60,744 bases of DNA from a virus (IMGVR_UViG_3300005337_000004:1-60744), one strand, 5' to 3'; shown: positions 5,563 through 48,258, counted from the stretch's first letter. Numbers and translations are program-made. Notes: generated from the letters alone by a model not told the origin.

Positions 5563-5608
5563 GTTAGAGATGTCAGGAAGCAGGAAGCAACCGAGGGGGA
5601 AGCTCGAA

Positions 5609-11924: not shown

Positions 11925-11960
11925 CTATGGTGCCGCATGCCGAGGGCTACTCCCCCGCTG

Positions 11961-12137: not shown

Positions 12138-12166
12138 TCGGCCAGTGTCGCACCTGTTGAGCAGCG

Positions 12167-25571: not shown

Positions 25572-26912
25572 TCACGTCTCCGCCATGTCGATCGCCCGCG
25601 AATAATGCCCCTGGAACCCGACGGTGATTTTGCACTGCGGGCCTTGCCGGTTCTTGGCGACGATCAGTTCTAGTTCGCCGGCGCGCGGGGACTCGCGTTC
25701 GTAGTAGTCGTCCCGGTACAGCAGCACGACGATGTTGGCGTCCTGTGCGATGGTGTCGGATTCGCGAATGTCGGACAGGATGGGCCGCTTGTCGGCGCGG
25801 GCGGCGGGTGACCGATTGAGCTGGGCGCCAACGACGACGGGCACGCGGAAGTCCATGGCTATGCGCTTGATGCCACGGGACAGTCCGCCGACGTCAATGG
25901 TACGGTTCCCAGATTCTCTCTCGGGCGTGAGGATCTGCAGGTAGTCAATGACGACCAGCTCGGGCAGGGCTTGGCGGGCCTGCATGCGACGCAGGGTAGA
26001 GCGAATCCGGCCGAGGGTGACGGTGCCGTCGATAATCATGTCAAAGGGGGCGCCGAGGATCCGGCCGGCCGCTTTACCGAGCCGCTTCTGCTCGAAATCG
26101 TCGATGCTGACGTTACCGCGCAAATGATGCAGCGGCACTTTCGCCTCGGCCGCGAACAGGCGCTGCATGACCTGCTCTTTGCTCATCTCCACTGACACCA
26201 GCAGGGTGTGCTTGCCGCATTCGATGGCGGCATGCCGGGCAAAGTCGACCATCACCACTGACTTACCCATGCCGGTGGCGCCGCCCACGACCACCATGTC
26301 ACCGCCTTCGATAGGCACGGCGCCACGGAAGTCCCGGTACGGGGTGGGCAGGTAGTTGCGGGGCTTGTCGCGGTCCAGGAGGTCGTCCAGGAAGCTCTCA
26401 GCGGCATCTGCGACGGCGGTGACGTCCTGACCGCCGGTGTCGCCGGTGACAGCCTGGATTTCGGCGGCGGCCAGATCGACGATTGCGGCGGTGTCGGAAC
26501 CGTCGGTGACGTAGGACATCTGCACGATCCGGGTTCCGGCCTGCCCGAGGCGCCGCAGGATCGCGGTCTCTTTGACGATGTCGGCGTAGTAGCCGGCGTT
26601 CGCGGCGGTCGGCACCGTGTGGATCAGTTCTTGCAGGTACGGTCCGCCGCCGATTTGGTTGAAATCGCCGTTCTTGGTGAGCAGCGCACCGACGGTGACG
26701 GGGTCGGCTGGTTCGCCGCGGGCGTTGAGGTCGCAGATGGCGGCGAAGATGGTTTCGTGTGCGGGCTTGTAGAAGTCGGCGGGCGTCAGGGGCACGTCGA
26801 GGACGTCGCCGATGGCATTGGGTGAGAGCATCATGCCGCCGAGGACGCACCGTTCGGCGTCGAGGTCGGACGGCGGGGTGCGGTCGTATCCGGGCTCGTC
26901 GGGGTTGGTCAT
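25572..26912 (-). CDS. dnaB: DnaB-like replicative helicase
   Basis: AERCVLGGMM, GATGMGKS, SVEMS, IDYLQI, AQLNR, SDIRES, IVAKNRQGP. Confidence 0.95.
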   Translation of the reverse strand: MTNPDEPGYDRTPPSDLDAERCVLGGMMLSPNAIGDVLDVPLTPADFYKPAHETIFAAICDLNARGEPADPVTVGALLTKNGDFNQIGGGPYLQELIHTVPTAANAGYYADIVKETAILRRLGQAGTRIVQMSYVTDGSDTAAIVDLAAAEIQAVTGDTGGQDVTAVADAAESFLDDLLDRDKPRNYLPTPYRDFRGAVPIEGGDMVVVGGATGMGKSVVMVDFARHAAIECGKHTLLVSVEMSKEQVMQRLFAAEAKVPLHHLRGNVSIDDFEQKRLGKAAGRILGAPFDMIIDGTVTLGRIRSTLRRMQARQALPELVVIDYLQILTPERESGNRTIDVGGLSRGIKRIAMDFRVPVVVGAQLNRSPAARADKRPILSDIRESDTIAQDANIVVLLYRDDYYERESPRAGELELIVAKNRQGPQCKITVGFQGHYSRAIDMAET

Positions 26913-28081
26913 GCGGCGCTCCGTTGGTTGGCGGCCGGGTGGCCGGGTGGTGGGCTATTGGGGTGCAGGCAGCGGGCGTCATGGCCGCTTTCGTGCTCGT
27001 ACCAGCCGAAGGGGTCGCACCAGCGGCAGTCGGCGGCGGTGCGGCCGGTAGCGCCGGGGGCGGACTGTTCCGACTTCGGCGGCGTCCAGTACTCCAGGTG
27101 CTTGCGCAGGTTGTTCCAGCCGTGCGTCGCCATGTCGGCTGCGGCCAAGCACAGAAGCTCGGCGCCTTCGCCTTCGTTGAGAAGTTCGCGGGCAGTGCGA
27201 CGGATGGCGTCCGGGGCCTTCACGGGGTGCGCGGCGCCGTTGCGAGTCCTGGCCCATGCTTCGATCCAGGCCTGCACGATCGACTCGGCGGGGTCGGAGG
27301 TGTTCGGCTTGCTGAGATCTTCTTTCTCTCGGGGTTTGTTCGGATCCGCCTCGGGCGGTCGCGTGGTGACCGTAGAGAGAGAAGCTTCTTTGAGAGACTT
27401 ATTAAAGAGATCGTTTCCGCTGGTCAGGTCATGATCAAACGCGGAATTCCGAAGATCGAACGCGGAATTCCGCGCGTGATCTTCGGAATTCCGACACTCG
27501 AAACGACCTGCGGAACTACCGTGTTCTACCTGGTCAGTTCGCGTGTCGGAATTCCGACTCTCGAAAGGATGTGCGAGACCGTTCGGGGCGTCCTTCGGCC
27601 GCGCAGGTGTCGAGCCGATTGCCGGCGGATCCGCCGGACTGGCACGCCAGTCCTCGCGGTAGCTGTCCAGCTTGTCCCATGCGTTCCGCCAGCCCTGGAA
27701 CCCCTCGGGTGGCAGGTCGTTCACCTGGAAGCGACGACGAGATTCGATGCCACCTCGGCCCGTCGATGCGACCAGCCGCTCACCGTCCCGGTTCGTTACC
27801 AGGCCCAGATGGTTCAGCACCTTCAGCGCGTCTCTGACGGCGGTCAGTGAAGTCGGCTTGCCGTTTACGCCAGGCAGAAGCCAGCACAGGTGATCCAGGG
27901 TGAGGCGCCGCGACGACTGATTGTCGCCCTTCTCGATCACCAACGATCGCATGATCGCGTACAGCTGGAACGGCGTGCCGCGCAGCTCGGGATGGAGCAT
28001 CGTCCAGTCCCGTATCGGCGTGAAGGACAGGCGTAACCCGTCGGCCGCGACGAGGTCGAACGACTGATTGTCGGTGGTCAT
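26909..28081 (-). CDS. replication initiator 2 (winged HTH, internal iterons)
   Basis: FTPIRDW...FQLYAIMRSL HTH; RNS repeats; ATGA-coupled to dnaB. Confidence 0.75.
   Translation of the reverse strand: MTTDNQSFDLVAADGLRLSFTPIRDWTMLHPELRGTPFQLYAIMRSLVIEKGDNQSSRRLTLDHLCWLLPGVNGKPTSLTAVRDALKVLNHLGLVTNRDGERLVASTGRGGIESRRRFQVNDLPPEGFQGWRNAWDKLDSYREDWRASPADPPAIGSTPARPKDAPNGLAHPFESRNSDTRTDQVEHGSSAGRFECRNSEDHARNSAFDLRNSAFDHDLTSGNDLFNKSLKEASLSTVTTRPPEADPNKPREKEDLSKPNTSDPAESIVQAWIEAWARTRNGAAHPVKAPDAIRRTARELLNEGEGAELLCLAAADMATHGWNNLRKHLEYWTPPKSEQSAPGATGRTAADCRWCDPFGWYEHESGHDARCLHPNSPPPGHPAANQRSAA
27442..27556. repeat. Four CGGAATTCCG palindromic iterons in 21-bp phase, putative origin 2
   Basis: Starts 27442, 27463, 27484, 27547 (spacing 21, 21, 63). 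Confidence 0.85.
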
Positions 28082-28509: not shown

Positions 28510-28526
28510 CAGGTTTCGCGTACTGT
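28510..28526 (-). promoter_or_regulatory. 17-bp site, left copy of inverted repeat
   Basis: CAGGTTTCGCGTACTGT is the exact reverse complement of 29975-29991. Confidence 0.75.
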
Positions 28527-28590
28527 TGCTAACCTTATCGAGAAGGTTGCACGGTTCAGCCAATCCCACGTATGCCTGAGGATTCCGCCT

Positions 28591-29124
28591 ATGCCCGATC
28601 AGCCCAAGGCTGACGACTCCACCGCCTACCTTGTGCCAACCGGCGGTGCGGACGCATGGTCCGCAGCCACTGCTGATCGCAATGGCAGCCAGCAACTTCT
28701 GGCGGTCGAGACCATCACTCCCCCGCAGCGGATCGCCGACGCGCTTCAACTCGGTGCGTCCGAGCGCGCCGTGGTTCGGCGTCGGCTTATGCTGATTGGC
28801 GGCCGGCCGGTGGAGATTGCGAACTCCTGGTACCCGGAGCTGCTGGCGCACGGCACACCGCTTGCCGACGAACGCCGGATCAAGGGTGGCGCGGCAACAG
28901 CGATTTCCGCACTCGGTCTGGTGCTGTCCTATGCCGACGAAGAGGTCGAACTGGACTCGTCCCCCACCGCGGACGAAGCCGGGCTGCTTGAAGTGCCGGA
29001 GTCCGAGCGGGTGGTGCGGCTGTTCCGCACCGCATACACGAGCGAGGACACGCCGGTCGAAGTAACTGACTCCGTGATACTGCCTGCCGGCCGGGTTCTT
29101 CAGCACCGGATTGAGGTGGGCTGA
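28591..29124 (+). CDS. stand-alone UTRA-domain protein (no HTH)
   Basis: AVVRRRLMLIGGRPVEIANSWYP...IKGG...PVEVTDSVI. Confidence 0.85.
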   Translation: MPDQPKADDSTAYLVPTGGADAWSAATADRNGSQQLLAVETITPPQRIADALQLGASERAVVRRRLMLIGGRPVEIANSWYPELLAHGTPLADERRIKGGAATAISALGLVLSYADEEVELDSSPTADEAGLLEVPESERVVRLFRTAYTSEDTPVEVTDSVILPAGRVLQHRIEVG

Positions 29125-29127
29125 GCC

Positions 29128-29901
29128 ATGGCCGACGGCGCCTACACCGATCCCCGGCCGCGACGTGAGCAGATCGCAGCAGACCTTCGAGCGGTCATCC
29201 TCGCAGGCAAGTACCCAGAGGTGCTTCCAGGGGTCAACATCCTGGCCGAGTGGTTCGACACGACGGTTAACACCATTCAGCACGCCCTGGCGATCCTGAA
29301 GGAAGAGGGGCTGATTCAGGCGGAGAAGGGCAAAGGGACCGAGATCATTGCCGAGCCGAAGATTTTGGTTCTTGCTGATCCGGACCCGCAGCTCGACGTC
29401 TACCGCTACGACTCGCTCGCCGTTGACGTCCTTCGAGTTGCGGTACCCGAGCGGAAGCGGCAGGAGCGTCTGGACGAGCGCGACCCCGAAACCGTGCCGA
29501 CGGATGTTGCCCGCCTTCTTGGCTTGAGTGCTGACGGACAGGCTGTGCGCCGCTTCAGAGTGATGCGCGTAAGGGCGACGGATGAGCCCGTCGAGGTGGA
29601 CTGGTCCTACTACCCGGTAGAGATTGCGGCAGGCACCCGCATTGCCCAGCCAGGATCGATCAAGGGCGGTGTACAGAGGATCCTCGATGAGATGGGCCTG
29701 CCCGTAGTTGACTACGAGGACCGCGTCTCGACGCGCGTTCCCACCACACAGGAACTTGAGCTGCTGCACCTGCCGCCGTTCGTGTCGGTGTTGCAGACGC
29801 TCCGAGTTGTGTGGTCGCACGACAGGAAGCCCATTGAGGCGACTGTCATGGTGAAGGGTGGTCATCGCTTCGAGTTGCTGTATCGCAGGTCCACGCATTG
29901 A
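29128..29901 (+). CDS. GntR/HutC-family regulator (KorSA/TraR-like)
   Basis: QIAADLRAVILAG...LP....LAEWF.....IQHAL..LKEEGLI...GKGT plus UTRA domain. Confidence 0.88.
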   Translation: MADGAYTDPRPRREQIAADLRAVILAGKYPEVLPGVNILAEWFDTTVNTIQHALAILKEEGLIQAEKGKGTEIIAEPKILVLADPDPQLDVYRYDSLAVDVLRVAVPERKRQERLDERDPETVPTDVARLLGLSADGQAVRRFRVMRVRATDEPVEVDWSYYPVEIAAGTRIAQPGSIKGGVQRILDEMGLPVVDYEDRVSTRVPTTQELELLHLPPFVSVLQTLRVVWSHDRKPIEATVMVKGGHRFELLYRRSTH

Positions 29902-29921
29902 TCGCACCCCCCTGTGTCTCT

Positions 29922-29949
29922 GGCCCCCGGCTCAAGCCGGGGGCCTTTT
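29922..29949 (+). terminator. intrinsic terminator
   Basis: GGCCCCCGGC-TCAA-GCCGGGGGCC-TTTT. Confidence 0.85.
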
Positions 29950-29974
29950 CGTTGTGCCGAGGTTGAGGCTTAAC

Positions 29975-29991
29975 ACAGTACGCGAAACCTG
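29975..29991 (+). promoter_or_regulatory. 17-bp site, right copy of inverted repeat
   Basis: ACAGTACGCGAAACCTG. Confidence 0.75.
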
Positions 29992-30041
29992 CTAATCTCA
30001 GCAATGACAGCACACCGAGCAACGCCGACAAGGGAGGCAGC

Positions 30042-30245
30042 GTGAGTAAGACCGCAGGTCAGGTCAATTTCTTGCGAGTGGCTGACGTCGCCCTTCGCAT
30101 CGGCGCGAGCGAATCCAAGGTCCGGATCTTGATCCGGAAGAAGCTGATCGCCGCCGAGCGCGACGGAGACCGCGGCATGTACCTGGTCAACGAGACCGAG
30201 TGCGACCGCTACCTGGCTGACCGGCGCGCACGCGCCGCCGCCTAG
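30042..30245 (+). CDS. excisionase-like HTH protein
   Basis: FLRVADVALRIGASESKVRILIRKKLIAA...MYLV. Confidence 0.75.
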   Translation: MSKTAGQVNFLRVADVALRIGASESKVRILIRKKLIAAERDGDRGMYLVNETECDRYLADRRARAAA

Positions 30246-30318
30246 CAAAGCGGCCCAGCCAGCGATAGCGCGCCGACCGGGCCTAGACAGCCATCCGCTC
30301 CAGGAAACGGAGACCGCC

Positions 30319-30618
30319 GTGACCACCACCGTACAGACCGCAAACCAGAACTGCCCCGCCTGGTGCCTGCGCCATGAGCCGGCAGTCGAGGGCCTGTGCA
30401 TTGGCCCCGCCGTCGAACTCGGCTTCGGCCCGAACCCGGACAACCCGCAGCACGCCCGCGACGCCCGGATCCTCACCTACAACGAGCCCGGCGGCATCAT
30501 CACCCTGTCGCTGATCGTAAACGGCACCGAAAGCTTCGACATGACCCCGGCGCAGGCCCGGCAGATCGCCGCCGCGCTGAATCAGGCCGCGGACGCCACC
30601 GAGGACGGCGCGCGATGA
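30319..30618 (+). CDS. hypothetical protein (DUF6907-like)
   Basis: CPAWCLRH...MTPAQARQIAAAL. Confidence 0.6.
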   Translation: MTTTVQTANQNCPAWCLRHEPAVEGLCIGPAVELGFGPNPDNPQHARDARILTYNEPGGIITLSLIVNGTESFDMTPAQARQIAAALNQAADATEDGAR

Positions 30619-30821
30619 GCGGCTTCGGCAACGGCGAACGCGTCGACTTCACCACCGACCACGTCAACCGCAAACTCACCGGCACCGTCGTCGACTTCGA
30701 ACCCAACTGGGACGGCAGCAAGGTCGAGTACACGGTCCGCGTCGACACCGCAAGCGGCGGGGGCACGCTCCAGACCACCGCAGACAAGATGCGCCGGAAC
30801 ACCAGCGGCGGTGGGCGATGA
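30615..30821 (+). CDS. small SH3/KOW-like protein
   Basis: MSGFGNGERVDF...TGTVVD...YTVRVD; ATGA overlap. Confidence 0.6.
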   Translation: MSGFGNGERVDFTTDHVNRKLTGTVVDFEPNWDGSKVEYTVRVDTASGGGTLQTTADKMRRNTSGGGR

Positions 30822-30985
30822 CCGGCCCCGTCACCATCAACGCGAGCAGCCAGGGCTACGACGCCCTCATGGCCACGCTGATCGGCACCAGCACCGCGCA
30901 GCCCGCGAGCTTCCAGGCCCGTGTCGCCGACCGCATCACCCGACAGCAGAACGCCGCGAAGGCCGGCAGCAAGGCTGGTGCGTGA
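30818..30985 (+). CDS. small hypothetical protein
   Basis: 55 aa, start/stop overlaps at both ends. Confidence 0.6.
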   Translation: MTGPVTINASSQGYDALMATLIGTSTAQPASFQARVADRITRQQNAAKAGSKAGA

Positions 30986-31197
30986 TGGCCAAGTACTCCT
31001 GGATCGCGACCTTCAACTACCCGGCCCCCGGCGGATCGGTCACCGTCAGCGCGCAGAACACGTTCGAGACATCCGAGACGGTCAGCCGGTCCGCGACGCT
31101 GGCGATGATCGTTCAGCACCTGAACGAGATCAAGGGCATGCCCCTCGACGCCAACGTGCTGTTCTTCAGCATCGAACCCGACGAGGTGGCGCGATGA
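30985..31197 (+). CDS. small hypothetical protein
   Basis: 70 aa, TGATG overlap. Confidence 0.65.
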   Translation: MAKYSWIATFNYPAPGGSVTVSAQNTFETSETVSRSATLAMIVQHLNEIKGMPLDANVLFFSIEPDEVAR

Positions 31198-31949
31198 TGA
31201 CCGCGACCCGCCCGGCGCCCATCCAGTACCCCGGCGACTCATGGCACCGCATCGCCATCCACGAAGCCGGCCACGCCGTAGCGCACCTGCTGCTCGGCCA
31301 CCACGTCCTCGACACCAGAATCGGGCCCGGCGCCGACGGCCACATGGGCACCATCAGCGGCAACACCAGATTCACCGGCCTGAACGCCAGCGCCCTGCCC
31401 GAGCTGGTCGGTACCGCGGCTGGCGAGACCGCCGTGCTGCACCTGCTTAACCGGCAGTGGACTCCGAACGCCGACGCGATCGCCCGTGCCACCGCAAACC
31501 ACGACCGGGAACGCGCCACCAGCATCACCGCCGGAACGACGCTGCCGATCGGCATCGAAACGGCGCTGGCCACCCGGATCGTCGCCGACTACTGGGACGC
31601 GGTCGAGAATGTCGCCGACGCCCTGCGCAGGTCGGACATCGGGCGCCTCGACCAGTTCGAGATCCTGGCCGCCGCCGACCTGGGTGCCGCCGAAATCGAC
31701 TGGTCCGAGCTCTACTCCATGGCCAACAACGCCATGCCCTTCAACTCCGACCTTCAGGCCTACCTGAACGGTCCGGGGTCGCAGGAAGAGAACGTCCGTG
31801 TTGAGTTCCTGCGGCAGCTTCGCGCGCACAACATCCTTTTCAGCCCGGAAACGGCACCGCGCCATCAGGTGGTCGCCGAGATTTTCGACCGCGGGCTGCC
31901 GGAGATTCAGGCCGCGTACCAGGCCGCCGCCGAGGAGCGTGCCCGATGA
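31194..31949 (+). CDS. stand-alone M41-like HExxH metallopeptidase domain protein
   Basis: RIAIHEAGHAVA...AAGETA...HDRE...WDAVENVADAL. Confidence 0.7.
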   Translation: MMTATRPAPIQYPGDSWHRIAIHEAGHAVAHLLLGHHVLDTRIGPGADGHMGTISGNTRFTGLNASALPELVGTAAGETAVLHLLNRQWTPNADAIARATANHDRERATSITAGTTLPIGIETALATRIVADYWDAVENVADALRRSDIGRLDQFEILAAADLGAAEIDWSELYSMANNAMPFNSDLQAYLNGPGSQEENVRVEFLRQLRAHNILFSPETAPRHQVVAEIFDRGLPEIQAAYQAAAEERAR

Positions 31950-32296
31950 CCGGCTTCGACCTCAGCGACCTGGCCCTGTTCACCAACAGCGCCGGCCGCC
32001 GCGTTGTGAAAATCATCGAGATCCTCGACCCCGCCCACGACTACATCGTCCACGCCGTCGGCGGCACCGCGTACTTCGCCCACCACAGCGAACTCGAACC
32101 GCTACCCGCCGACACGCCCGCGTTCGCCGCAGACACCAGGGTCCTGGTGGCCGACGCCGGCCGTACCGGCATCGTGTCCGCCCCGGAATTCCGGGGCAAC
32201 CTGTTCGGCTACTGGCTCGACCTTGACGACACCGGCGAGCACGTGTGGGTCCCGGCCGAACTGCTGACCGCGCACGAAGGCGGTGAGCAGCGATGA
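31946..32296 (+). CDS. tandem SH3-like protein
   Basis: FGYWLDL..G..W.PA..L shared with next gene. Confidence 0.65.
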   Translation: MTGFDLSDLALFTNSAGRRVVKIIEILDPAHDYIVHAVGGTAYFAHHSELEPLPADTPAFAADTRVLVADAGRTGIVSAPEFRGNLFGYWLDLDDTGEHVWVPAELLTAHEGGEQR

Positions 32297-32661
32297 CCGA
32301 CTTCAAGCCCGGCAACCTGGTGATGTTCACCCTCGGACGCGGCAACTACATCGGCACCATCCGGCCTAACGTCAGCGACGGACTCGGCTGGGCCATCGAA
32401 ACCCAGTCCGGGACCTTCTACGCCGACGACGACATGCTGACGCTGCTGCCCGACAACACGCCGCTGCTCTGGCGCGGCGACACCGTCCAGATTCGGCTCC
32501 TTGCTGAGGATCCCGAATACGCCGGGCAGACCGGGCAGATCTTCGAACCCGGGTTCGATAGCGGCGGCGAGACGTTCGGCTACTGGCTGGACCTCACTTC
32601 GGGCGGGCGGGGATGGTTTCCGGCCTACGCCCTGATCGCTTTGGGCGGTGACCGGCGATGA
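32293..32661 (+). CDS. tandem SH3-like protein, paralog of 31946-32296
   Basis: FKPGNLV; GDTVQI...GQTGQI...FGYWLDL. Confidence 0.65.
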   Translation: MTDFKPGNLVMFTLGRGNYIGTIRPNVSDGLGWAIETQSGTFYADDDMLTLLPDNTPLLWRGDTVQIRLLAEDPEYAGQTGQIFEPGFDSGGETFGYWLDLTSGGRGWFPAYALIALGGDRR

Positions 32662-33083
32662 CCGGCTTCAAGTCCGGCGACTGGGTCGGCATCGGCCAGC
32701 ACCCCGACGAGAACCTCGAAGGCCGCACCGGCACCGTTGAGCACGAGACCGGCGAGCACGGCCCGTTCATGGTGCGCCTCGACAAGCCGCTGCCCGACGG
32801 CAGCGAATACGTCGAGGCGTTCGGCCACGAGCTGGAGCTGCTGCAGTCCCGCGACGTCATCACCGTCGTGACCGGCGCGGACGGCGCGGACGTGGCCGCG
32901 GTCCACGACTCGGCCACGCGAAGCGTCGACATCGTTTGCTCCGCGCACCCCGACTTCCTGACCTTTACCTACGACGTCGGCACCGTTGACGCCGTCCGTA
33001 ACGGATTCCGCGCCGACGCCGCCATGTACGCGGACAAGCACGCCACCGGCAAGCACGCCACCGACGCTCTCGACAGGAGCTGA
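32658..33083 (+). CDS. SH3-like N-terminal domain protein
   Basis: FKSGDWV...GRTGTV...FMVRLD. Confidence 0.6.
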   Translation: MTGFKSGDWVGIGQHPDENLEGRTGTVEHETGEHGPFMVRLDKPLPDGSEYVEAFGHELELLQSRDVITVVTGADGADVAAVHDSATRSVDIVCSAHPDFLTFTYDVGTVDAVRNGFRADAAMYADKHATGKHATDALDRS

Positions 33084-33088
33084 CCACC

Positions 33089-33520
33089 ATGACCGTCGCC
33101 ACCCTGACCCGTCTGGACCGCTCCGTGACCGATGCGCCGCGCTTCGCCAAGACCGACCTGCCCCGTGCTTTAACGTCCGTTGGCGAAGCCCGTGCGTGGA
33201 CGGGAAAGACCCTGGCCGGCTGGGACGCGCCCGGCGACACCATCGACGACGCGGTGCTGCTGGTCTCGGAGATCGTGACCAACGCCCTCGTTCACAACGC
33301 CGGCGCCGGAACCACCACCGTCACCGCGGCCTTCTGGCACGGACACCTCCGCATCACCGTGTCCGACCCCGACCTCCAGGTCCCCGTACCGGACCGGGCG
33401 GACGACGAGCACGGACGCGGCCTGATGATCGTGTCAATGCTGGCCACGCGGTGGGGCGAGACGAAAACCCTCGCCGGGAAGTTCGTGTGGATCGAGCTGA
33501 CTGCGGAGTGGCCGCGATGA
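33089..33520 (+). CDS. HATPase_c RsbW-like ATP-binding protein (anti-sigma-like)
   Basis: VSEIVTNALVH, ITVSD, EHGRGL.IV, RWG...GKFVW. Confidence 0.9.
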   Translation: MTVATLTRLDRSVTDAPRFAKTDLPRALTSVGEARAWTGKTLAGWDAPGDTIDDAVLLVSEIVTNALVHNAGAGTTTVTAAFWHGHLRITVSDPDLQVPVPDRADDEHGRGLMIVSMLATRWGETKTLAGKFVWIELTAEWPR

Positions 33521-33714
33521 CCCAGCCCACGACTGCCGGCGACGCCTACGACGCGGTGCTGATCGCAGGCCTGCGCGAGCACGTCTTCGACCTCGAAGAC
33601 TACGACGCCGAAGCCGCCGCACGAGAAGCAGCCAGCGAGATCCCGCAGCTCGGGAGGTTCGCTCAGGACCTACGCGCGGCCGAGATCCAAATCAGGAAGG
33701 AGACCGGATCGTGA
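33517..33714 (+). CDS. small hypothetical protein
   Basis: ATGA overlap. Confidence 0.6.
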   Translation: MTQPTTAGDAYDAVLIAGLREHVFDLEDYDAEAAAREAASEIPQLGRFAQDLRAAEIQIRKETGS

Positions 33715-34184
33715 ACGCGCTCGCCATCGCACGCTACCTCGGCACCCGCCTGCACTCCGCCGAACTGACCGCCGCCGCGTGGCTCGATACCCGCCGCCAT
33801 GTCCGTCTGTTCCCTCTGGCTTGGGTACACCAGGGCGTGCGCCCGTGGCTCCCGACCGGTATCGCGGTTGCCGTTTTGGCGCTCGGCCACCCCAGCCGGG
33901 CCGCTGGCGCAGTTATCACCATCGTCGGCGTGGCCCTTACCGTCTTCTCCCGCATCGCAGCCAAGAGTCACCACATTCTCAACGAGGAAGACCGGCCCTG
34001 CCCGTACTGCCCCAAGGGCGAAGGACCCGGTAACGGTGGCCTGTGGCTCGACTGGGACATCGACGACGACGACATCCCGCCCGCACCGAACGAGCTGACA
34101 GAGATAACCGACGAGGAGATCCGCGAGTCGCTCAGCAACTTCGACGCCGACTATGCCGAAGTGTGCCGGGAGGCAACGCGATGA
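33711..34184 (+). CDS. membrane protein with acidic tail
   Basis: Two hydrophobic segments, CPYC. Confidence 0.65.
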   Translation: MNALAIARYLGTRLHSAELTAAAWLDTRRHVRLFPLAWVHQGVRPWLPTGIAVAVLALGHPSRAAGAVITIVGVALTVFSRIAAKSHHILNEEDRPCPYCPKGEGPGNGGLWLDWDIDDDDIPPAPNELTEITDEEIRESLSNFDADYAEVCREATR

Positions 34185-34624
34185 AGATCCTGCGACGCAA
34201 CCGCTCCGGCGACCTGACCGGCCCCAACAGCCCCTACAAGACCGAACGCGCCGCCTACTGGGCCTGGACGTTCCTGCGGCACCCCAGCTTCATCCTCAAC
34301 CGCCCCGTCATCGTCCGGCTCGCCGACGACACCATCGTCAGCCCCCTGTTCGTGTACGGCAACCTGCAGGTCCCGGCATACAGCGGCGTCCAGTTCTACA
34401 ACGGCGTCAACATCGAAGGCGACGCCCGCAGCCTGCAACGCCTGGCCGCGCTGCTGATCGACCGGGCCGAACGCGTCGAGCACGTGCAGGCGCTGCTGGA
34501 CACCGGGGCGATGCCCGGCGACGAAGACACGGCGGCGTTCCCGGACGGGTTCGGCCCGGACGTCGCATGGCAGGACCTGAGGCTCGGCAACGCCAAGCGA
34601 GCCGGCCGCTGGACCGGTGCCTGA
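34181..34624 (+). CDS. hypothetical protein
   Basis: ATGA overlap. Confidence 0.65.
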   Translation: MKILRRNRSGDLTGPNSPYKTERAAYWAWTFLRHPSFILNRPVIVRLADDTIVSPLFVYGNLQVPAYSGVQFYNGVNIEGDARSLQRLAALLIDRAERVEHVQALLDTGAMPGDEDTAAFPDGFGPDVAWQDLRLGNAKRAGRWTGA

Positions 34625-34893
34625 TGAACCTCTTCCGACGCCTCGAAGCCCCGCCGAACCCGCTGCACCAGGCCTACACCGCCGCGACCGGACGAACCGT
34701 GCAGGACGCCGTCGGCGACACCACCGGCGGCACGCCGACCGGCTGGATCCCCGCACCCGAGCACCCCGAGATCTGGGCCGCGCTCGCGACCGCCGGCAAC
34801 AACCCCGGCGTCATCGACCACACCACGACCGCACTCCCCGTGCTCACCTCGCCGACGGAACCCAGCCGCGAGACCGACAACACCGACCAGTGA
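34624..34893 (+). CDS. hypothetical protein
   Basis: TGATG overlap. Confidence 0.6.
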   Translation: MNLFRRLEAPPNPLHQAYTAATGRTVQDAVGDTTGGTPTGWIPAPEHPEIWAALATAGNNPGVIDHTTTALPVLTSPTEPSRETDNTDQ

Positions 34894-34954
34894 AACCAAG
34901 GGCGCCAGAACGCCCCCGACCCGCAAGACCCAACCGCGCGAAAGGAACCCGGCC

Positions 34955-35140
34955 ATGGCGAAGAACATCGGGATCATCACCGGCGGCAACGTCGTCATCG
35001 AAGGCGACGTGAACGTCACCAGCGACGACAAGCCCTCCAAGGACACCAACGTCGGCATCATCACCACCGGCGACAGCAACGTCGTCATCAACGGCACGTT
35101 CAACGTCGGCGGCGGCAGCCAGAACGGAGAGCCGCAATGA
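34955..35140 (+). CDS. 61-aa two-repeat N/V/I/G-rich peptide (amyloid-motif-like)
   Basis: GAAAGGA RBS; NIGIITGGNVVIEGDVNV and NVGIITTGDSNVVINGTFNV. Confidence 0.7.
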   Translation: MAKNIGIITGGNVVIEGDVNVTSDDKPSKDTNVGIITTGDSNVVINGTFNVGGGSQNGEPQ

Positions 35141-35532
35141 TCGCCGAAGGCCTCCTCGCCCACCTCGTCGGCGACTACCTGCTCCAGTCCCACTGGATGG
35201 CCACCAAGAAGGTCAAGCACTGGTGGCCCGCCCTGGCCCATGGCGCCGCCTACACCCTGCCGTTCCTGATCATCACCCGCTCGCTGTGGGCGCTGCTGGT
35301 CATCGGCGGCACCCACGCCATCCTCGACCGGTACCGCGTCGCCAAATACGTGACCTGGGCCAAGAACCTGATCGGCCCCAAGTCGTTCCGCACGCCCCTG
35401 TCCGAAGCCGTCACCAACAGCGGATACGCCGCCACGGTCCCGGCCGGACTGGCAACCGCACTGCTGATCATCGCCGACAACACCGTGCACATCGCCATCA
35501 ACACCGGCGCCCTGTACTGGCTCGGCAGATAG
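35137..35532 (+). CDS. DUF3307 membrane protein
   Basis: LLAHLVGDYLLQS..MA..K; H...Y; TH..LD; IADNTVH. Confidence 0.85.
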   Translation: MIAEGLLAHLVGDYLLQSHWMATKKVKHWWPALAHGAAYTLPFLIITRSLWALLVIGGTHAILDRYRVAKYVTWAKNLIGPKSFRTPLSEAVTNSGYAATVPAGLATALLIIADNTVHIAINTGALYWLGR

Positions 35533-35591
35533 AGCCTGCAGCCGCCACAAACTCCCGGCTGTCAGCGCCGGGTCAACTGAAAGGACCCGAC

Positions 35592-35765
35592 ATGGGCCTG
35601 TTCCGCCACAACCAGGAAGTTCGCACCGCCCAGGCCGCGCTCGACGCGAACGCCGCCTACGAGCGCAAGAACGGCATCGACTGGGAGACCGACCAGTACC
35701 TGCAGCTCAACCAGAACGTCAACGACGCGTTGAAGGCCGAGAAGAAGGCCAAGAAGCGCCGCTAA
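35592..35765 (+). CDS. small hypothetical protein
   Basis: GAAAGGA RBS; 57 aa, basic tail. Confidence 0.65.
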   Translation: MGLFRHNQEVRTAQAALDANAAYERKNGIDWETDQYLQLNQNVNDALKAEKKAKKRR

Positions 35766-35822
35766 CCCACAAGCCTCCGGCCGTCACCGAACACAGCCGG
35801 ACAACCACGAAAGGACCAGACC

Positions 35823-36002
35823 ATGGCACTGCTCAAGAAGAACACCAGCGACGCCGAGGCGTACAACCAGGCCGGCGACGACGCCGCCAAGCAGGGCCGG
35901 ACCGACAGCGCCGAGATGTTCTACGACATGGCCGTCGCCGAGGCGACCGACGCCGACCGCGCGGCCCGCGGCAAGAGCCCGCGCGGCGGACGCCGCGGCT
36001 GA
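35823..36002 (+). CDS. small hypothetical protein
   Basis: GAAAGGA RBS; 59 aa. Confidence 0.65.
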   Translation: MALLKKNTSDAEAYNQAGDDAAKQGRTDSAEMFYDMAVAEATDADRAARGKSPRGGRRG

Positions 36003-36012
36003 CCCACCAACT

Positions 36013-36059
36013 CCCGGCCGCCTCAGTCCGAGGTCCCCAAGCCCACTGAGGCGGCCGGG
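36013..36059 (+). other. 15-bp perfect intergenic hairpin
   Basis: CCCGGCCGCCTCAGT-N17-ACTGAGGCGGCCGGG. Confidence 0.7.
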
Positions 36060-36086
36060 CTTCACCGCCGAAAGGAGAACCGAGCC

Positions 36087-36425
36087 ATGACTACCACCAT
36101 CACCCTCGCGCTGCTCCTCATCGGCGCATGCCTCGCCGGTTTCGGCACCCTTGCGTTCCTTGCCGCCGTTCCCGCCGCACCTGACCCCGACGGCACCAAC
36201 CCCAGCGCGCCCGATGTCGAAACGCTGCGCCTCACCTGGCTCGCGGCCCGCCATGGACGCCACGTCGCCGGACTCGGCCTCGCCATGTGGCTGGCCGCAC
36301 ACCCCGCCACCGCCGCCCCCTATACCGCGCTGCTTATCGCCGCCGGTGTTGCCTTTGCCACCTCGTACCTCACCACCCGCGCCGCCCCCGAACTCATGAA
36401 GAGGGCAGCCGCATGGACCTTGTGA
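36087..36425 (+). CDS. membrane protein
   Basis: GAAAGGAG RBS; three hydrophobic segments. Confidence 0.7.
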   Translation: MTTTITLALLLIGACLAGFGTLAFLAAVPAAPDPDGTNPSAPDVETLRLTWLAARHGRHVAGLGLAMWLAAHPATAAPYTALLIAAGVAFATSYLTTRAAPELMKRAAAWTL

Positions 36426-37462
36426 TAAATCAGGATTCTGCCGCCACCAACGAAAGCGATAAGATGCATTCGGGCTTGGGGCCAAAGAACCCGACCGTCG
36501 GGAAGGACGGCCGGGCTTTGCCGCACGCGATTGTTGGGATCGACGTGAGCGACAAGCCCCACGGTAAGGCAAAAAGGCGCGACAAGAACAGCGCGCCCAC
36601 CCTGGCCGTCCCCAAAGAAGCCATCCGCGACTCCCGCATCGGCGGGACCATCGCCCTACTTTGCGCCGCTGCCATTTCCGCACAAACCCTGTTCGCCCTC
36701 GGGCGGCTCATCGGCCTGTCCCCCTGGACCGCATGGCTGCTGCCGGCCGCGCTCGACGTCTACGCCATGACCGCAACCCGCGTCGCCTTCCAGGTGCCCG
36801 TCGGCCACACCGCCCGCGACAAGGCCATCTGGAACGCCCGCGTCGCCCTGTTCTTCACGATCTCCAGCAACTGCCTCTACCACGCCATGCACCTCGCTAA
36901 GGGGCACCACAACTGGACCGCCTCCGACTGGGCCCTCGTCGGCGTCTCGGCGCTCCCGCCGATCGTCGTGGAGCGTCTGCTGCACTTGCAGTCGATCGTG
37001 AACTCCGGCACGGTTCCGGCCGCGCCGGAAGAGGCGAGTGGAAGCCGGAAGGAGTCCGCAGCCGGAAACGGAAGCGCCGACCGGAAGCAGCGGCCGGAAG
37101 CTCCCGCTTCCACTCCCGCTTCCGTTCCGGCTTCCAGCCCGCTTCCGGTATCCGCTCCCGCCGGAAGCCCCGCCGCTTCCAGCGGAAGCAGACCGGCCGC
37201 ATCCACTGCAAGCCGGCACACCGCATCCGGACCCATCCCCATCCAGCGCGGCGAGCGACTGAAAGTCGTCCGCGACTGGATCGACAGCGCCGGCGGCGAC
37301 AAGAAGTCCGTGCCGCTGAAGGAGATCCAGGAGCGCTTCGGCGTGTCCCAGGCGACCGCCTCCCGCATGCGTGACGACGCCGCAGATCTGCCCTCCAAGC
37401 CCGCGCCGCAGCCCGAGCAGGCCGGCGACGAGGAGCCCGAACGAGCGCGGGAGGCGAGCTGA
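36413..37462 (+). CDS. DUF2637 (Spd-like) membrane protein with C-terminal HTH
   Basis: AWLLPAALDVYA, NARVAL, SNCLYH, VSALPP; C-terminal LKEIQERFGVSQATASRMR. Confidence 0.78.
   Translation: MDLVINQDSAATNESDKMHSGLGPKNPTVGKDGRALPHAIVGIDVSDKPHGKAKRRDKNSAPTLAVPKEAIRDSRIGGTIALLCAAAISAQTLFALGRLIGLSPWTAWLLPAALDVYAMTATRVAFQVPVGHTARDKAIWNARVALFFTISSNCLYHAMHLAKGHHNWTASDWALVGVSALPPIVVERLLHLQSIVNSGTVPAAPEEASGSRKESAAGNGSADRKQRPEAPASTPASVPASSPLPVSAPAGSPAASSGSRPAASTASRHTASGPIPIQRGERLKVVRDWIDSAGGDKKSVPLKEIQERFGVSQATASRMRDDAADLPSKPAPQPEQAGDEEPERAREAS
37027..37188. repeat. Cluster of 13 GGAAG/CTTCC motifs in the DUF2637 linker
   Basis: 37027, 37040, 37047, 37070, 37083, 37096, 37107, 37119, 37131, 37142, 37163, 37176, 37184; forward copies fall in all three codon phases. 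Confidence 0.85.
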
Positions 37463-39654
37463 TGACACGACACGACGCGGAGATCTTCGACGAGACCACC
37501 GAAGATTTTCGGTGGAGCAGCGGCCACGACCTGAGTCGCGTCATTCCTGGATCTGCCGCACAAAGGGGCGACGAACAGGACTTGACCTGGCCTTCTGCCG
37601 TTTTTCCCGGCCCCGGCGTGGGCTACGACGCGCTGAGTCAGCACGGTCAGCTCACTTTGAACGCGCTGCTCGCCCCCGACCTGCCGCGGCCCATGAACGC
37701 CGCCTGGACCAAGTGGCCCGGCTGGCAGTACGTGTGGCCCGGTGCGCTCGCAGGCGGCTGGTCCGGGCTCGGGTTCTGGGCGCACTCCGAGCCGCTGCAC
37801 CCGCTGTTCGCCGGCGGTTTTGGGCTGGCCGGCGCAGCCCTAATGGCGCTCGGCGCGCTCGGCATCGCCGCCAGCAACACCGGGAAGCGGGATGCGGAAG
37901 ACCACCCGGCCGACACCGCCGGAACCCGCGCTCTCATCGGTCTCGGCGGGGCTGCATGGGCCGGCGCCGCGGCTTCCGGTGCCGGGTTCTCCGGTATCGG
38001 ATGCATGCTCGCTTTCGGAAGCCTCGGCGCCGCATACCTCGGCGCAAGCGGATGGAAGCACATGCGACGCCACAACGCCATCCGCGCCGTCATCGACTAT
38101 GCATCCGCTTCCAATCCGGGACCCGGAAGCGGCATGCCGCTTCCGGTGATCCCGCCGTTTGCACTGCCGGACAACCGGATGCCGTCGAACCCCTATGAGC
38201 ACCGGTTGCGGCAGGCCGTGTCGGTACAGGGAGTCGACGACATCTGGTTCGGGCCGCCGATGAGGGTGGCCCAGGACACCTGGCAGCTGCCGTTCGAACT
38301 GGGCGAGACCTCCAAGCTGTCGCCGCAGGCCCTTGTGAAGAAGGAAGACCAGCTCGCCACCAACGCCCGCGCCCGGCGTATCGAGGTCGAACCCACCCAC
38401 GGACCCCGCGGCACCATGACCGTGTACGACGGGCCTGACCGCACAGACGAGACCTTCCCGTGGAACGGCACCCTCATTAAGAGCGTCGAGAAGCCGTTCC
38501 TCATCGCCTACGACGAAGCCAGCCGGAATACCGAAATCGACTTCACCGAGCACATTCTGCTCACCGGCCGCACGCGCTTGGGCAAGTCGGCACTTCTGCG
38601 CTACCTGCTCGTCGCCACCATCGAATGCGACATCGTCCGATTCGGCGTCGACTGCAAAGACGGCGCACCAGGCTTCGGAATGCTCGAACCGGTCTTCACC
38701 GAGCTGGCCACCGACCCGATGGACGGATGGCGCCAACAATTCGGCATCAAAGGCATTGCCGCCGTCCGCGGCCAGTGGATGCGCCGCAAAGGCATCGACA
38801 AGTGGGACCTGGCCGACGGGCCCCGCGTTGTCCAGGCCACCGACGAGCTCGCCGAGATGATCCTGCGCTACCCCGACGCCGCAGAGATTTTCAAGTCCAA
38901 CCTGTCGCTCGTTGCCGCCTCAGCCATCACCTACCTCACCGCGACACAGACCCCCTCCAAGGCTGTGTTCGGGAAGAACACCGACGGCCGCAAGCAGTTC
39001 GGCGTCCGCATCGGCTTCAAAAACGACATCGAGGCCAACACCATGGTTTTCGGTGGGCTGCCCGGCTACCGGGTGCAGGATCTGGATGCCGCCGGCAAGC
39101 TCCTCATTGCCTCGCTGGAACACCAGCGTCCTCGACGCCATAAGTCCGTATGGATGGACCGGGACCCGGCGCTTGCCCTAATGGAGCGATACGACGGGCG
39201 CCTGCCGAAGATCGATGCGATGTCATGGGAGGGCTACCTGGCCGCCTGCGAGGCTTTCGACGAGGCGTTGCGGACGGGAGCGAACCCACTGGAGACATTT
39301 GAGCCGCCGCCATCCGGTGGGGGCGGACGGCGCACCGACTCGTTTGTTGATTCGGCACAGGCAGAGGAACGACGTCGGGGCTTTCGACTGGTCACGAACT
39401 ATCCGGGTACGGACGAGCCGATTGAGATGAAGCACCTGGCGCTGTGGAACCTGCTCGGCGAGTACGGCGCTGACGGCACCACCGCCATGGAATTGGCGGC
39501 GCGCCAACTCGACGGGTTTACCTCGGAGTCGAACGTCCGTAAGCAACTGCGGGCCTGGGACGCCCGCGGTTTCATTACCTCGGTGAAGGACGGCCGGGCC
39601 GAGCGCTGGTGGCGCATCGATGTGGTCGACGAGCCAGCCCGGAAGGACGCGTGA
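37462..39654 (+). CDS. FtsK/SpoIIIE-family ATPase, TraB-like (N-terminal TM helices, C-terminal winged HTH)
   Basis: Walker A GRTRLGKS, Walker B VQATDE, ATQTPS; C-terminal ESNVRKQLRAWDARGFI. Confidence 0.85.
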   Translation: MTRHDAEIFDETTEDFRWSSGHDLSRVIPGSAAQRGDEQDLTWPSAVFPGPGVGYDALSQHGQLTLNALLAPDLPRPMNAAWTKWPGWQYVWPGALAGGWSGLGFWAHSEPLHPLFAGGFGLAGAALMALGALGIAASNTGKRDAEDHPADTAGTRALIGLGGAAWAGAAASGAGFSGIGCMLAFGSLGAAYLGASGWKHMRRHNAIRAVIDYASASNPGPGSGMPLPVIPPFALPDNRMPSNPYEHRLRQAVSVQGVDDIWFGPPMRVAQDTWQLPFELGETSKLSPQALVKKEDQLATNARARRIEVEPTHGPRGTMTVYDGPDRTDETFPWNGTLIKSVEKPFLIAYDEASRNTEIDFTEHILLTGRTRLGKSALLRYLLVATIECDIVRFGVDCKDGAPGFGMLEPVFTELATDPMDGWRQQFGIKGIAAVRGQWMRRKGIDKWDLADGPRVVQATDELAEMILRYPDAAEIFKSNLSLVAASAITYLTATQTPSKAVFGKNTDGRKQFGVRIGFKNDIEANTMVFGGLPGYRVQDLDAAGKLLIASLEHQRPRRHKSVWMDRDPALALMERYDGRLPKIDAMSWEGYLAACEAFDEALRTGANPLETFEPPPSGGGGRRTDSFVDSAQAEERRRGFRLVTNYPGTDEPIEMKHLALWNLLGEYGADGTTAMELAARQLDGFTSESNVRKQLRAWDARGFITSVKDGRAERWWRIDVVDEPARKDA
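37883..38144. repeat. Second cluster of about 11 GGAWG(C) motifs inside the TraB-like gene
   Basis: 37883, 37890, 37896, 37972, 37999, 38017, 38054, 38101, 38107, 38125, 38139 (both orientations). Confidence 0.7.
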
Positions 39655-39655
39655 G

Positions 39656-40432
39656 ATGAGCGAGACCTGCGTTGCTGCTGATTTCGGCAGTGAGTGCACC
39701 ACAAAGGCAACGATGGTTACCCCCGTGCCGTTGTGTGATGAGCACCGACTTCAGGTGGCTTTGCTAGTTGTACCGGACGTCCTGACCGCGGCTCTGCGGC
39801 ATGCGGGCAGCGACGTGAGGCCGGCGCCGCTGGCGCCGGAGGAACGAGCCGCCATTGTTGCCGGGGCACGTGCAAAGCCTGTTGGCGCGTACATGGGCGG
39901 AGTCCACGGCCCGGTCGTGTACTTCGCCGACACCGGAGCGCGCATCAAGATCGGCACCTCGACGAACCTGCGCAAGCGGATCCGATCGCTGTCTCTGCAG
40001 GACAAGGATGTGGTGCTGCTGCTCCAGGGCGGCCTGATGCTCGAGCGGGCGCTGCACGACACGTTCGCGAAGGAGCGGATTGACTCCACCGAATGGTTTG
40101 CCAAGTCCGAGCGGCTCATGAAGTTCATCGAAGGCAAGCGCGGAGAGCTCGGCGTCCAGCCGAAACAGCAACCCCAACGGCGAGCGAACAAGCCGTCCCC
40201 GACGCCGCAAACCGGCCGTGCCGGCGCGCGGTCGCTACCCGAGTGGGCGAACCTGGCGCTGCCGCTCTACCAGCAGCATGTGGCCAAGGTTGGACGCAGG
40301 CCGTCCGGGACGGAGCTGGCCAAGCTCATGGCGGACGCGGGCTACGGCGAGATCAAGGAGGCCCGCAGTCGCTACATCCGCAACGCTGCCGCAAAGCTGG
40401 CCGGTTCACCGGACGCCAAGGGGCGCGGCTGA
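39656..40432 (+). CDS. T5orf172-like GIY-YIG domain protein with C-terminal HTH
   Basis: VVYF...IKIGTSTNLRKRI...LERALH..F...EWF. Confidence 0.78.
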   Translation: MSETCVAADFGSECTTKATMVTPVPLCDEHRLQVALLVVPDVLTAALRHAGSDVRPAPLAPEERAAIVAGARAKPVGAYMGGVHGPVVYFADTGARIKIGTSTNLRKRIRSLSLQDKDVVLLLQGGLMLERALHDTFAKERIDSTEWFAKSERLMKFIEGKRGELGVQPKQQPQRRANKPSPTPQTGRAGARSLPEWANLALPLYQQHVAKVGRRPSGTELAKLMADAGYGEIKEARSRYIRNAAAKLAGSPDAKGRG

Positions 40433-41037
40433 TGCCTGCGAAGAACTGGCGCGGCAAGAGCCACCCCGGCTTGATCTGGCGCTTCGTGTTCGGCCACAAC
40501 GGGCCAACCCGCGCGCGGCTTCGAGCCGAGCTGGAGCGCAAGCTTCGCCTGTCGCTGAGCTCAGACTTCGAGGTCCCGATTCGAGACCCGGCGACGGGCC
40601 GAGTCGGGAAGCAGCGGTGGCGTATCGAACCTGACGGCAAAGTCCGTGAGGTGAAGACGCCCCCGAAGAAGAAGGGATCGGCGACGAAGCGTTCGGCGGC
40701 AAAGAAGACGACCACGAGCCGGACGGCTTCAAAACCATCGAAGCCGTCGCGCACCTCGAAGTCCGGCAGCGCGCAGCAGCGCCGCCAGCCGGCCGCAGCC
40801 CCGACGCCCCGCCGTGCCCGAGCAGAGACGATGTCGGAGCGGGTGCTGCAGAACCCCGACGGCACCTTCGCAGGCTCACGGAAACAGAAGCCGGTTACCT
40901 ACGCCCAGGCCCAGCAGGAGTACGCGAAGGCCATGCGGAACGCGCAGGCGGCGTCGAAGCGCGCCGAGGAGCTGCTCGGGTGGGACCAGCCGCGAACCCG
41001 TCGATCCACCACCAGTAGAGGAGACCGAACATCATGA
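40432..41037 (+). CDS. highly basic hypothetical protein
   Basis: K/R/S/T-rich central segment; TGATG overlap. Confidence 0.65.
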   Translation: MPAKNWRGKSHPGLIWRFVFGHNGPTRARLRAELERKLRLSLSSDFEVPIRDPATGRVGKQRWRIEPDGKVREVKTPPKKKGSATKRSAAKKTTTSRTASKPSKPSRTSKSGSAQQRRQPAAAPTPRRARAETMSERVLQNPDGTFAGSRKQKPVTYAQAQQEYAKAMRNAQAASKRAEELLGWDQPRTRRSTTSRGDRTS

Positions 41038-41384
41038 CCGCCATGACCGACTGGAACCTGTTCGCGGACGTCGCGGACATCACCGCCTGGCTGGACAACT
41101 CGAACCCGACCGGCCCGCACGAGGACGCGATGCGCGTCATGAAGCTGATGGAGGAAGCCGGCGAGGCCGCGGCGGCCTACATCGGCATGGTCGGGCAGAA
41201 TCCGCGCAAGGGGGTGACGCACACGCTCGATGAGTTGCTGAACGAGCTTGCAGACGTCGCGATCACCGCACTGTGCGCCATGCAGCACTTCACCCAGGAC
41301 GAGGCGGTGACCCGCGCGCACCTGGCCTCGAAGGTGGACGGAATCATCAAGCGTTCGGGGATCACCAAGGCCGGCGTTCACTGA
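41034..41384 (+). CDS. MazG-like nucleotide pyrophosphohydrolase
   Basis: MKLMEEAGEAAAAYIG..GQNPRKG...ELADV. Confidence 0.85.
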   Translation: MTAMTDWNLFADVADITAWLDNSNPTGPHEDAMRVMKLMEEAGEAAAAYIGMVGQNPRKGVTHTLDELLNELADVAITALCAMQHFTQDEAVTRAHLASKVDGIIKRSGITKAGVH

Positions 41385-41405
41385 CCGGCCGCTCCGCACA
41401 GCACG

Positions 41406-41437
41406 AAGGCCCGGACCGCCACACGGTCCGGGCCTTT
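41406..41437 (+). terminator. intrinsic terminator closing the transfer-like operon
   Basis: AAGGCCCGGACCG-CCACA-CGGTCCGGGCCTT-T. Confidence 0.75.
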
Positions 41438-48206: not shown

Positions 48207-48258
48207 CCGCCGCCGCACGCCCCTCCCCCACCTGAACGAACCGGCGGGAGGTGCGCAC

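Follow-up and report, generated by a model that had tools for sequence, protein, structure and literature searches.

The spread of phages is assumed to occur through virions alone. In filamentous actinomycetes a further route exists, the FtsK-type transfer of double-stranded DNA (dsDNA) employed by their plasmids. In this work, we analyze a block of genes (positions 28510–41437) from a viral DNA of 60,744 bases (IMGVR_UViG_3300005337_000004:1-60744; this whole stretch is hereafter called the window), in which a tailed phage, probably of soil actinomycetes, carries a cassette with a membrane dsDNA translocase of the FtsK/Tra type (hereafter the pump), a DUF2637-like membrane protein and two arrays of a repeated hexamer. 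An earlier annotation made from the sequence alone (hereafter the original prediction) had described the block as a conjugation-like module of Streptomyces type. Based on the sequence, we estimate at about 0.5 the probability that the block represents a phage-owned counterpart of the FtsK-type (Tra/TraB) dsDNA transfer machinery of actinomycetes, which would serve for capsid-free spread.

The Streptomyces plasmids pIJ101, pSVH1 and pWTY27 combine Tra/TraB with clt and with KorA/TraR (PMC4447253, PMC3583192). The locus described here shares with these systems an FtsK-like motor that is anchored in the membrane and carries at its C-terminus a winged helix-turn-helix (HTH), a regulator of the GntR family that is a homologue of KorA, a neighbouring DUF2637-type protein and short repeats clustered at the tra gene. 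It differs from them in being located on a virion-encoding, integrase-bearing phage and in having a GntR gene that does not lie next to the pump gene in divergent orientation. Moreover, unlike in TraB/clt, the repeats track the HTH of the partner protein, not the winged helix of the pump.

Tailed-phage virion genes together with a Streptomyces-type tra function on one replicon, as found here, are also described for pZL12/phiZL12 and pSLE1. As cited in PMC4487206 and PMC3583192 from Zhong et al. (2010), these are plasmids of ∼86–90 kb with ParA/ParB, and pZL12 is said in PMC3583192 to depend for its conjugal transfer on a major tra gene together with neighbouring genes. The original prediction had invoked pZL12 as a precedent, and by description the parallel is valid for the coexistence of virion and tra-type genes, but not for the rest of the replicon, since in the present genome of 124.7 kb there is one tyrosine integrase and ParA is absent.

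Among named proteins, those closest to the pump are the 'FtsK-like DNA translocase' gp10 of the Streptomyces phage Gilgamesh (NC_073461) and FtsK/SpoIIIE proteins from five circular Streptomyces 'plasmids' of ∼130 kb. They are 28–32% identical to the pump, and the hidden Markov model of its family matches them (1e-64 to 8.5e-76) along membrane region, motor and winged helix. Among the PLSDB plasmids, no similarity to the pump was detectable except in five of ∼130 kb. Gilgamesh and the ∼130-kb plasmids are likewise large temperate phage-type genomes, but the Gilgamesh backbone is unrelated, with a portal-MuF fusion, ParA/ParB and two integrases. A search for a DUF2637-like gene that covered ∼122 of the 129 kb of Gilgamesh and 25 kb around the plasmid pump gene detected none. 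The five 'plasmids' (one of them L001, NZ_CP107821.1) have a pump of the Gilgamesh type, are typed as non-mobilizable and one has genes of the queuosine pathway; they look like phage-plasmids related to Gilgamesh.

Additionally, homologues of Spd proteins on actinophages were proposed by Thoma et al. to aid the spread of phage DNA between mycelial compartments (PMC4447253), and FtsK-like genes, known to be frequent in Streptomyces phages, have usually been passed over as replication-related (PMC11536984; bioRxiv 10.1101/2024.02.16.580700). Going by the published descriptions of pZL12, the annotation of Gilgamesh and the phage Spd homologues, there are precedents for transfer genes of Streptomyces type on a tailed phage, so that the kind as such is not new. 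What is new is a conserved module of this type in an integrase-type, probably non-Streptomyces, phage lineage of 125–134 kb, as are the codon-resampling null tests and the cross-locus covariation of the arrays described below. Also new is the placement of specificity in the DUF2637-like partner instead of the pump, which this covariation implies at the sequence level.

The pump (730 amino acids [aa]; 37462–39654, plus strand) is the third gene of the cassette. Its Walker A (GRTRLGKS, aa 369–376), Walker B (VVQATDE, aa 456–462) and ATQTPS (aa 494–499) motifs are present, with residues G369, G374, K375, S376, D461, E462, Q496 and P498 invariant in 15 homologues (alignment A1), and in sequence the protein looks catalytically intact. 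It matched PHROG 1358 (FtsK/SpoIIIE) at 1.3e-6; its family profile found TcpA (1.7e-8) and FtsK (5.7e-7) in a hmmsearch of the PDB, and Foldseek matched it to the FtsK motor 2ius (8.9e-12). In hhalign, alignment A1 was paired with Tra of pIJ101 (94.5%, E 7e-8, 271 columns) and with the protein that PGAP names TraB in NZ_CP109424 (95.6%, 335 columns), in both cases over the motor only. Hydrophobic helices within aa 88–216 make up an N-terminal membrane segment, and the structural model has a C-terminal winged helix at aa 656–718 (helix-helix-helix-strand-strand, predicted local distance difference test [pLDDT] 80–93). Taken from sequence and model, the pump is an FtsK-family motor with a predicted Tra/TraB-like architecture, that is, hydrophobic N-terminus, motor and C-terminal winged helix. 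FtsK/SpoIIIE and TcpA of pCW3 have the same motor fold and catalytic motifs, but the pump differs from them in its N-terminus, in a winged helix that is not assigned as a gamma domain, in its phage location and in its predicted DNA-binding membrane partner. Homologues of the pump number 19, at 34–98% identity, all of them metagenomic; PF01580 was found on some, partly as a faint match. In a library clustered at 50% identity, about 25 full-length members of the family reach E<1e-60.

The gene immediately upstream, second of the cassette, encodes the DUF2637-like membrane protein (349 aa; 36413–37462, plus strand). The DUF2637 protein of the original prediction is real, but its start lies at 36413 instead of 36287 and its Pfam score (22.2 bits) stays below the cut-off of 22.8. 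An AlphaFold2 model contains four transmembrane (TM) helices at low pLDDT (aa 68–198), a disordered linker and, at the C-terminus, a confident three-helix HTH (aa 279–325, FGVSQATASRMR). In hhalign, the protein was paired at 95.8% with a DUF2637 protein encoded two genes downstream of traB on the 15-kb Streptomyces plasmid NZ_CP109424, and it had no homology to SpdB of pIJ101 (probability 0.1%). Its closest cultured DUF2637-domain homologues come from Catenulispora, where they carry PF10935 and one is located at the end of an integrative and conjugative element (ICE) with a type IV secretion system. A wide structural search of the model with VIA-align matched the membrane part to generic helical bundles only (Z<10) and assigned the C-terminal HTH to no family. 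A complex prediction for pump aa 40–250 with aa 60–349 of the DUF2637-like protein scored 0.00, without a verdict.

A k-mer scan revealed GGAAGC/GCTTCC as the densest hexamer cluster of the genome. Array A, with 11 copies (37025–37190), is located in the disordered-linker codons of the DUF2637-like gene, where three direct copies spaced 13 bp are followed by four inverted ones at 11–12 bp. Array B, with seven copies (37883–38144), occupies pump codons 131–270, in the membrane-segment region. One array lies on each side of the pump gene start, and together they concentrate within 1.1 kb 18 of the 107 copies present in 124.7 kb, while the remaining 1.4 kb of the pump gene has none. When the protein sequence was kept fixed and codons were resampled from the genome's own usage, 1.7 copies were expected in array A (11 observed, p<2e-4) and 1.3 in array B (7 observed, a count attained by 0 of 3000 resamples, p<3.3e-4). 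The hexamers occur in three reading frames and on both strands and make use of the rare codons GCT, GGA and CTT. Candidate cis sites had been part of the original prediction, and these two arrays near the pump gene start provide them. A third, small GGAAGC/GCTTCC cluster (5 copies in 57 bp, 5547–5603) lies inside the gene at 5468–5854.

A codon-shuffle test on the commonest k-mer of any kind reached marginal to moderate significance in some of the homologous loci (labelled L below), and after this result we used a cross-locus test with the motif fixed in advance. Under codon resampling, the motif fixed in one locus was enriched in independent loci (10 vs. 1.4, 10 vs. 2.5 and 11 vs. 2.5 copies). 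The position of array A is retained in L015, L013 and L017. Moreover, arrays A and B carry an identical hexamer within each of 11 loci. The hexamer is GGAAGC in seven loci whose HTH is of the FGVSQATASRMR type (the window, L015, L013, L017, L029, L027 and, weakly, L008) and GCGGCA in four with a PGSPRSERNIR-type domain (L028, L012, L006 and L014); PLP and ALP are encoded with CTT in one hexamer group and with CTG in the other. The hexamer is independent of the recognition helix of the pump, since identical helices are found with both hexamers, and also of the pump tree, since the pumps of L017 and L006 are 76% identical and their hexamers differ. The simplest reading of this covariation is that the HTH of the DUF2637-like protein may be what reads the arrays. 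The winged helix of the pump was also considered as the array reader and rejected as the main reading, because the same recognition helices are accompanied by different hexamers.

The window corresponds to the first 60,744 bases of a single complete contig of 124,744 bases, whose opening 110 bases are repeated at its end. In IMG/VR it is recorded as a virus whose termini are direct repeats, and CheckV gives it a completeness of 100%. Virion genes are found downstream of the block: large terminase (46534–47937), portal (48259–50523), ClpP-type prohead protease (50523–52079) and HK97-type capsid (52034–53488). The only tyrosine integrase of the genome is at 79074–79643, beyond the window. The terminal repeats, the CheckV value, the virion genes and the single integrase together indicate a complete temperate tailed phage of the integrase type. 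The block lies between replication genes, represented by DnaB (25572–26912, minus strand), and the virion genes from terminase to capsid (46534–53488), as stated in the original prediction. No ParA (AAA_31) was found in the 124.7-kb genome, and of the par genes only a ParB_N-like protein is present (93111–94097, beyond the window). A megablast of the DNA from 36 to 42 kb against the INPHARED phages returned no match. In 185,579 species genomes, a scan based on the alignment of the pump and a second one based on the capsid protein returned no relative, so that neither a host nor a prophage copy came out of these two scans.

The organization of the block is shared by contigs whose pumps are only 34–94% identical. 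From one end to the other, the common layout consists of replication genes on the opposite strand, GntR, a run of small genes, a two-TM protein, the DUF2637-like protein, the pump, a basic protein and then terminase and portal; two independent samples yielded 134-kb contigs with this layout. The small-gene run includes HTH_17 and/or HATPase_c_2 proteins in some loci, the GntR gene is kept in nearly all relatives, and the cassette proteins vary within 95–112 aa (two-TM), 290–360 aa (DUF2637-like) and 160–220 aa (basic). This conservation marks the block as a long-standing and retained component of a lineage of temperate tailed phages of 125–134 kb, not as recent cargo. In L012 (a 51-kb Logan contig, SRR29837704), the four-gene cassette is found at 8818–12735 and the GntR operon is missing; there, the cassette has a tyrosine integrase on one side and lysis/tail genes on the other, in a phage backbone that is either different or rearranged. 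Since L012 carries only the cassette, this is itself a modular unit able to move between backbones. Some relatives have a NUDIX gene beside the cassette (L013, 7724–8182; the contig of P0021), whereas the window has no NUDIX gene and carries a weakly MazG-like gene (41034–41384) in its place. We take the NUDIX neighbour to recall pif of the actinomycete ICEs (AICEs) of pSAM2 type.

If the block does encode a transfer machinery, the HTH of the DUF2637-like protein would bind the two phased hexamer arrays on either side of the pump gene start, which would hold the genome of the phage at the membrane, next to the pump. A hexamer of the pump could then drive the phage dsDNA through a septal cross-wall or the cell envelope. 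The likely benefit would be a spread of the genome between hyphal compartments that does not depend on the capsid, possibly reaching neighbouring mycelium, and the cassette would presumably be under the control of GntR. As far as sequence goes, transfer into other individuals and movement across the septa of one mycelium are not separable; pZL12 is a precedent for the former, and the latter was proposed by Thoma et al. for the actinophage Spd homologues. In a narrower form of this idea, which we put forward only tentatively, the DUF2637-like protein would be a membrane 'clt adaptor': its exchangeable HTH would read the arrays in the coding sequences of the DUF2637-like gene itself and of the pump gene and hand the 125-kb genome to the pump for spread of naked dsDNA between hyphae or cells, with GGAAGC and GCGGCA defining distinct self-recognition groups of related phages.

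In the lineage described here, temperate phages of the integrase type retain a transfer-type module as a conserved core feature. A swappable HTH with covarying hexamer arrays would constitute a concrete recognition system and makes capsid-independent spread of phages testable. The finding also bears on the origin of phage-plasmid-ICE hybrids and on how infection passes the compartment barriers of mycelial hosts.

The kinship with Streptomyces transfer systems that the original prediction had claimed was corroborated by the alignments to Tra of pIJ101 and to TraB, by the match of the GntR protein to KorA and by the plasmid DUF2637 match. Nevertheless, several observations weigh against the interpretation as a transfer machinery. 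The pump itself matched no Pfam (E≤0.01, including PF01580) or NCBIfam (E≤0.01) family, and its kinship to bona fide TraB is only remote; of the 'TraB-like ATPase with intact Walker motifs', the motifs were found as described but the relationship to TraB is distant. Its nearest named relatives bear just the generic name 'FtsK-like', and the cultured Catenulispora homologues of the partner protein match the DUF2637 membrane domain only. The GntR unit lies ∼6 kb upstream of the cassette, is transcribed separately and is absent from L012. The winged helix of the pump is nearly invariant while the arrays vary, so that a classical TraB-clt recognition fails to explain them. Actinophages, the lytic ones included, commonly carry FtsK-like genes, and a role of these genes in replication was suggested (PMC11536984). 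Finally, a phage that integrates is found as a prophage in all compartments of its lysogen anyway, which would limit any benefit to infection or induction.

Other explanations have to be considered. The pump and its partner could act like FtsK, SpoIIIE or SffA in septal segregation, clearing the phage genome across cross-walls or sporulation septa, with the arrays as loading or centromere-like sites. The pump has the motor fold and motifs of FtsK, the arrays resemble a tethering site and, without ParA, the phage in its extrachromosomal state would profit from some other device for its inheritance. On the other hand, the integrase provides stable inheritance with no need for such a device, and the partner genes (DUF2637, KorA-like GntR) are typical of transfer modules and not of chromosome segregation. 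We regard this role, which overlaps mechanistically with intramycelial spread, as rather unlikely. Even less probable, in our view, is a domesticated module for exclusion, defence or takeover, which would block plasmids, AICEs or superinfecting phages or act on host DNA and leave the phage's own genome unmoved. PHROG classes the FtsK/SpoIIIE-like phage proteins as 'moron, auxiliary metabolic gene and host takeover', the shift of the cassette between backbones in L012 is typical of accessory genes, and pif-like NUDIX genes lie near the cassette in relatives. However, the cassette occurs in every relative found, which is atypical of defence genes, and the arrays are on the phage's own DNA and covary with its own DNA-binding domain, which points to self-recognition.

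The arrays might also be a by-product of low-complexity Ala/Ser/Gly/Pro coding instead of cis-acting sites. Array A does coincide with a disordered linker, as array B does with a membrane segment rich in Gly/Ala, and the commonest-k-mer test was only moderately significant in some loci. This hardly seems probable, because a motif taken from one locus is enriched in independent ones under codon resampling, all three frames and both strands are used, the same amino acids are encoded with CTT or CTG according to the group, and both arrays share their hexamer. Finally, the block could be a recently inserted AICE or plasmid fragment, possibly missing from packaged DNA. The set of GntR, Xis-like HTH, DUF2637 and FtsK-like proteins resembles AICE modules, and the GC skew changes sign near 30 kb. 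However, there is no integrase or Rep gene within the block, the sole tyrosine integrase being at 79 kb. The longest direct repeat between the flanks has 11 nt against a null mean of 11.6, that is, chance level and nothing like att sites of its own. The GC content of ∼67% is the same in the block and along the whole genome, and relatives whose pump is as little as 34% identical have the same block at the corresponding place. The absence of an own integrase or Rep gene, the lack of flank repeats beyond chance and the synteny in relatives led us to reject an AICE insertion, which we consider largely refuted and very improbable.

Genes of the block were called by third-position GC and their starts then corrected; Pfam searches of the small open reading frames with corrected starts gave nothing above cut-off. 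All features given below are on the plus strand where a strand was assigned. At the upstream end, a UTRA-only protein of 177 aa (28591..29124, +; Pfam UTRA 1e-18, no GntR domain), a GntR paralog without the DNA-binding domain, directly precedes the full GntR gene; it is not at this position in the relatives L006 and L013, and it might act by titrating the effector or by forming heterodimers that are inactive. The GntR/HutC-type regulator predicted originally was confirmed at 29128–29901 (257 aa; Pfam GntR 1.6e-10, UTRA 5e-13). It is similar to KorA/TraR, with 30% identity to KorA of pIJ101 (E 2e-9), and it matches a GntR protein of the linear plasmid SAP1 (E 4e-23), in which homologues of the GntR, HATPase and DUF2637-like proteins are found within 7 kb. 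A strong intrinsic terminator (29922–29945; 10 G-C pairs, 4-nt loop, TTTTCGTTGT tail) closes this regulator unit, and in a comparison with kil-kor the KorA match thus stands in a separate, terminated unit and not beside the cassette.

Downstream of this terminator, the small HTH protein announced as Xis-like is present at 30042–30245 (67 aa, MerR/Xis type), but its own scores for HTH_17 (23.8 bits) and Rv2175c_wHTH (26.4 bits) are both slightly under the Pfam cut-offs; the syntenic gene of relatives matches HTH_17. About 14 small early genes follow (30319–36002), among them a DUF6907 gene and several membrane proteins. This run includes an HExxH protein (31194–31949) and three tandem paralogs of 116, 122 and 141 aa (31946–33083), which are translationally coupled, share a G(Y/H)WLDL motif and match no family. 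It also includes an anti-sigma-kinase-like HATPase_c_2 protein (33089–33520), whose position is conserved in relatives and which is 29% identical to an 'ATP-binding protein' of the SAP1 region. The membrane proteins of the original prediction were recovered at 33711–34184, at 35137–35532 (DUF3307) and at 36087–36425.

The last of these, a small two-TM protein of 112 aa, is the first gene of the cassette and is preceded by a perfect 15-bp inverted repeat that can form a hairpin (36013–36059). It aligns with 95–98-aa proteins of L013, L006, L012, L008 and L014, with which it has a PD.ETLR motif in common. Behind the pump gene, a T5orf172/MUG113 (GIY-YIG-like) gene identified by Pfam (39656–40432) is missing in these same five loci and present in L029 and probably also in L015; it is likely a mobile homing-type insertion. 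The fourth cassette gene encodes a basic K/S/T-rich protein (201 aa, 40432–41037), aligned across six loci and 47% identical to the product of the gene directly after the pump in L013. Its stop is overlapped by 4 nt by the start of the weakly MazG-like gene, whose product is an all-alpha protein of 116 aa with a PRA-PH/MazG match (PF01503) at E 0.09 only. A hairpin with a 13-bp perfect stem (41406–41436) closes the block, in agreement with the predicted terminator. The block is not, however, the single coupled operon that had been proposed: the terminator after GntR, the hairpin ahead of the cassette and gaps of 190–440 nt interrupt it, and translational coupling is confined to sub-runs. The second replicon that had been attributed to it lies outside positions 28510–41437.

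Other products encoded beyond the window include a GH25 lysin, a GDSL lipase, a DnaC/IstB-like loader, SSB and a putative tape-measure protein, called from size and position only and without a family match. A tRNA-Ala reported by ARAGORN within the GDSL-lipase gene was judged a false positive and yields no clue to attP.

Outside the block, further repeat clusters were found. The palindrome CGGAATTCCG has four copies at 27442–27556, three of them spaced 21 bp, and one further copy in the genome. The four copies sit within a 390-aa gene (26909–28081, minus strand) immediately upstream of dnaB, and the cluster is likely an iteron or origin inside an initiator gene. A second iteron-like cluster is formed by GGGTTA/TAACCC, with 7 of the 17 genomic copies at 21961–22092, inside the gene at 21419–22453 (minus strand) and adjoining an 826-aa gene without a family match. 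Further downstream than the window, TAGCTACA has its seven genomic copies all within 100 bp (110656–110755), as overlapping palindromes that make up a candidate operator or parS-like site.

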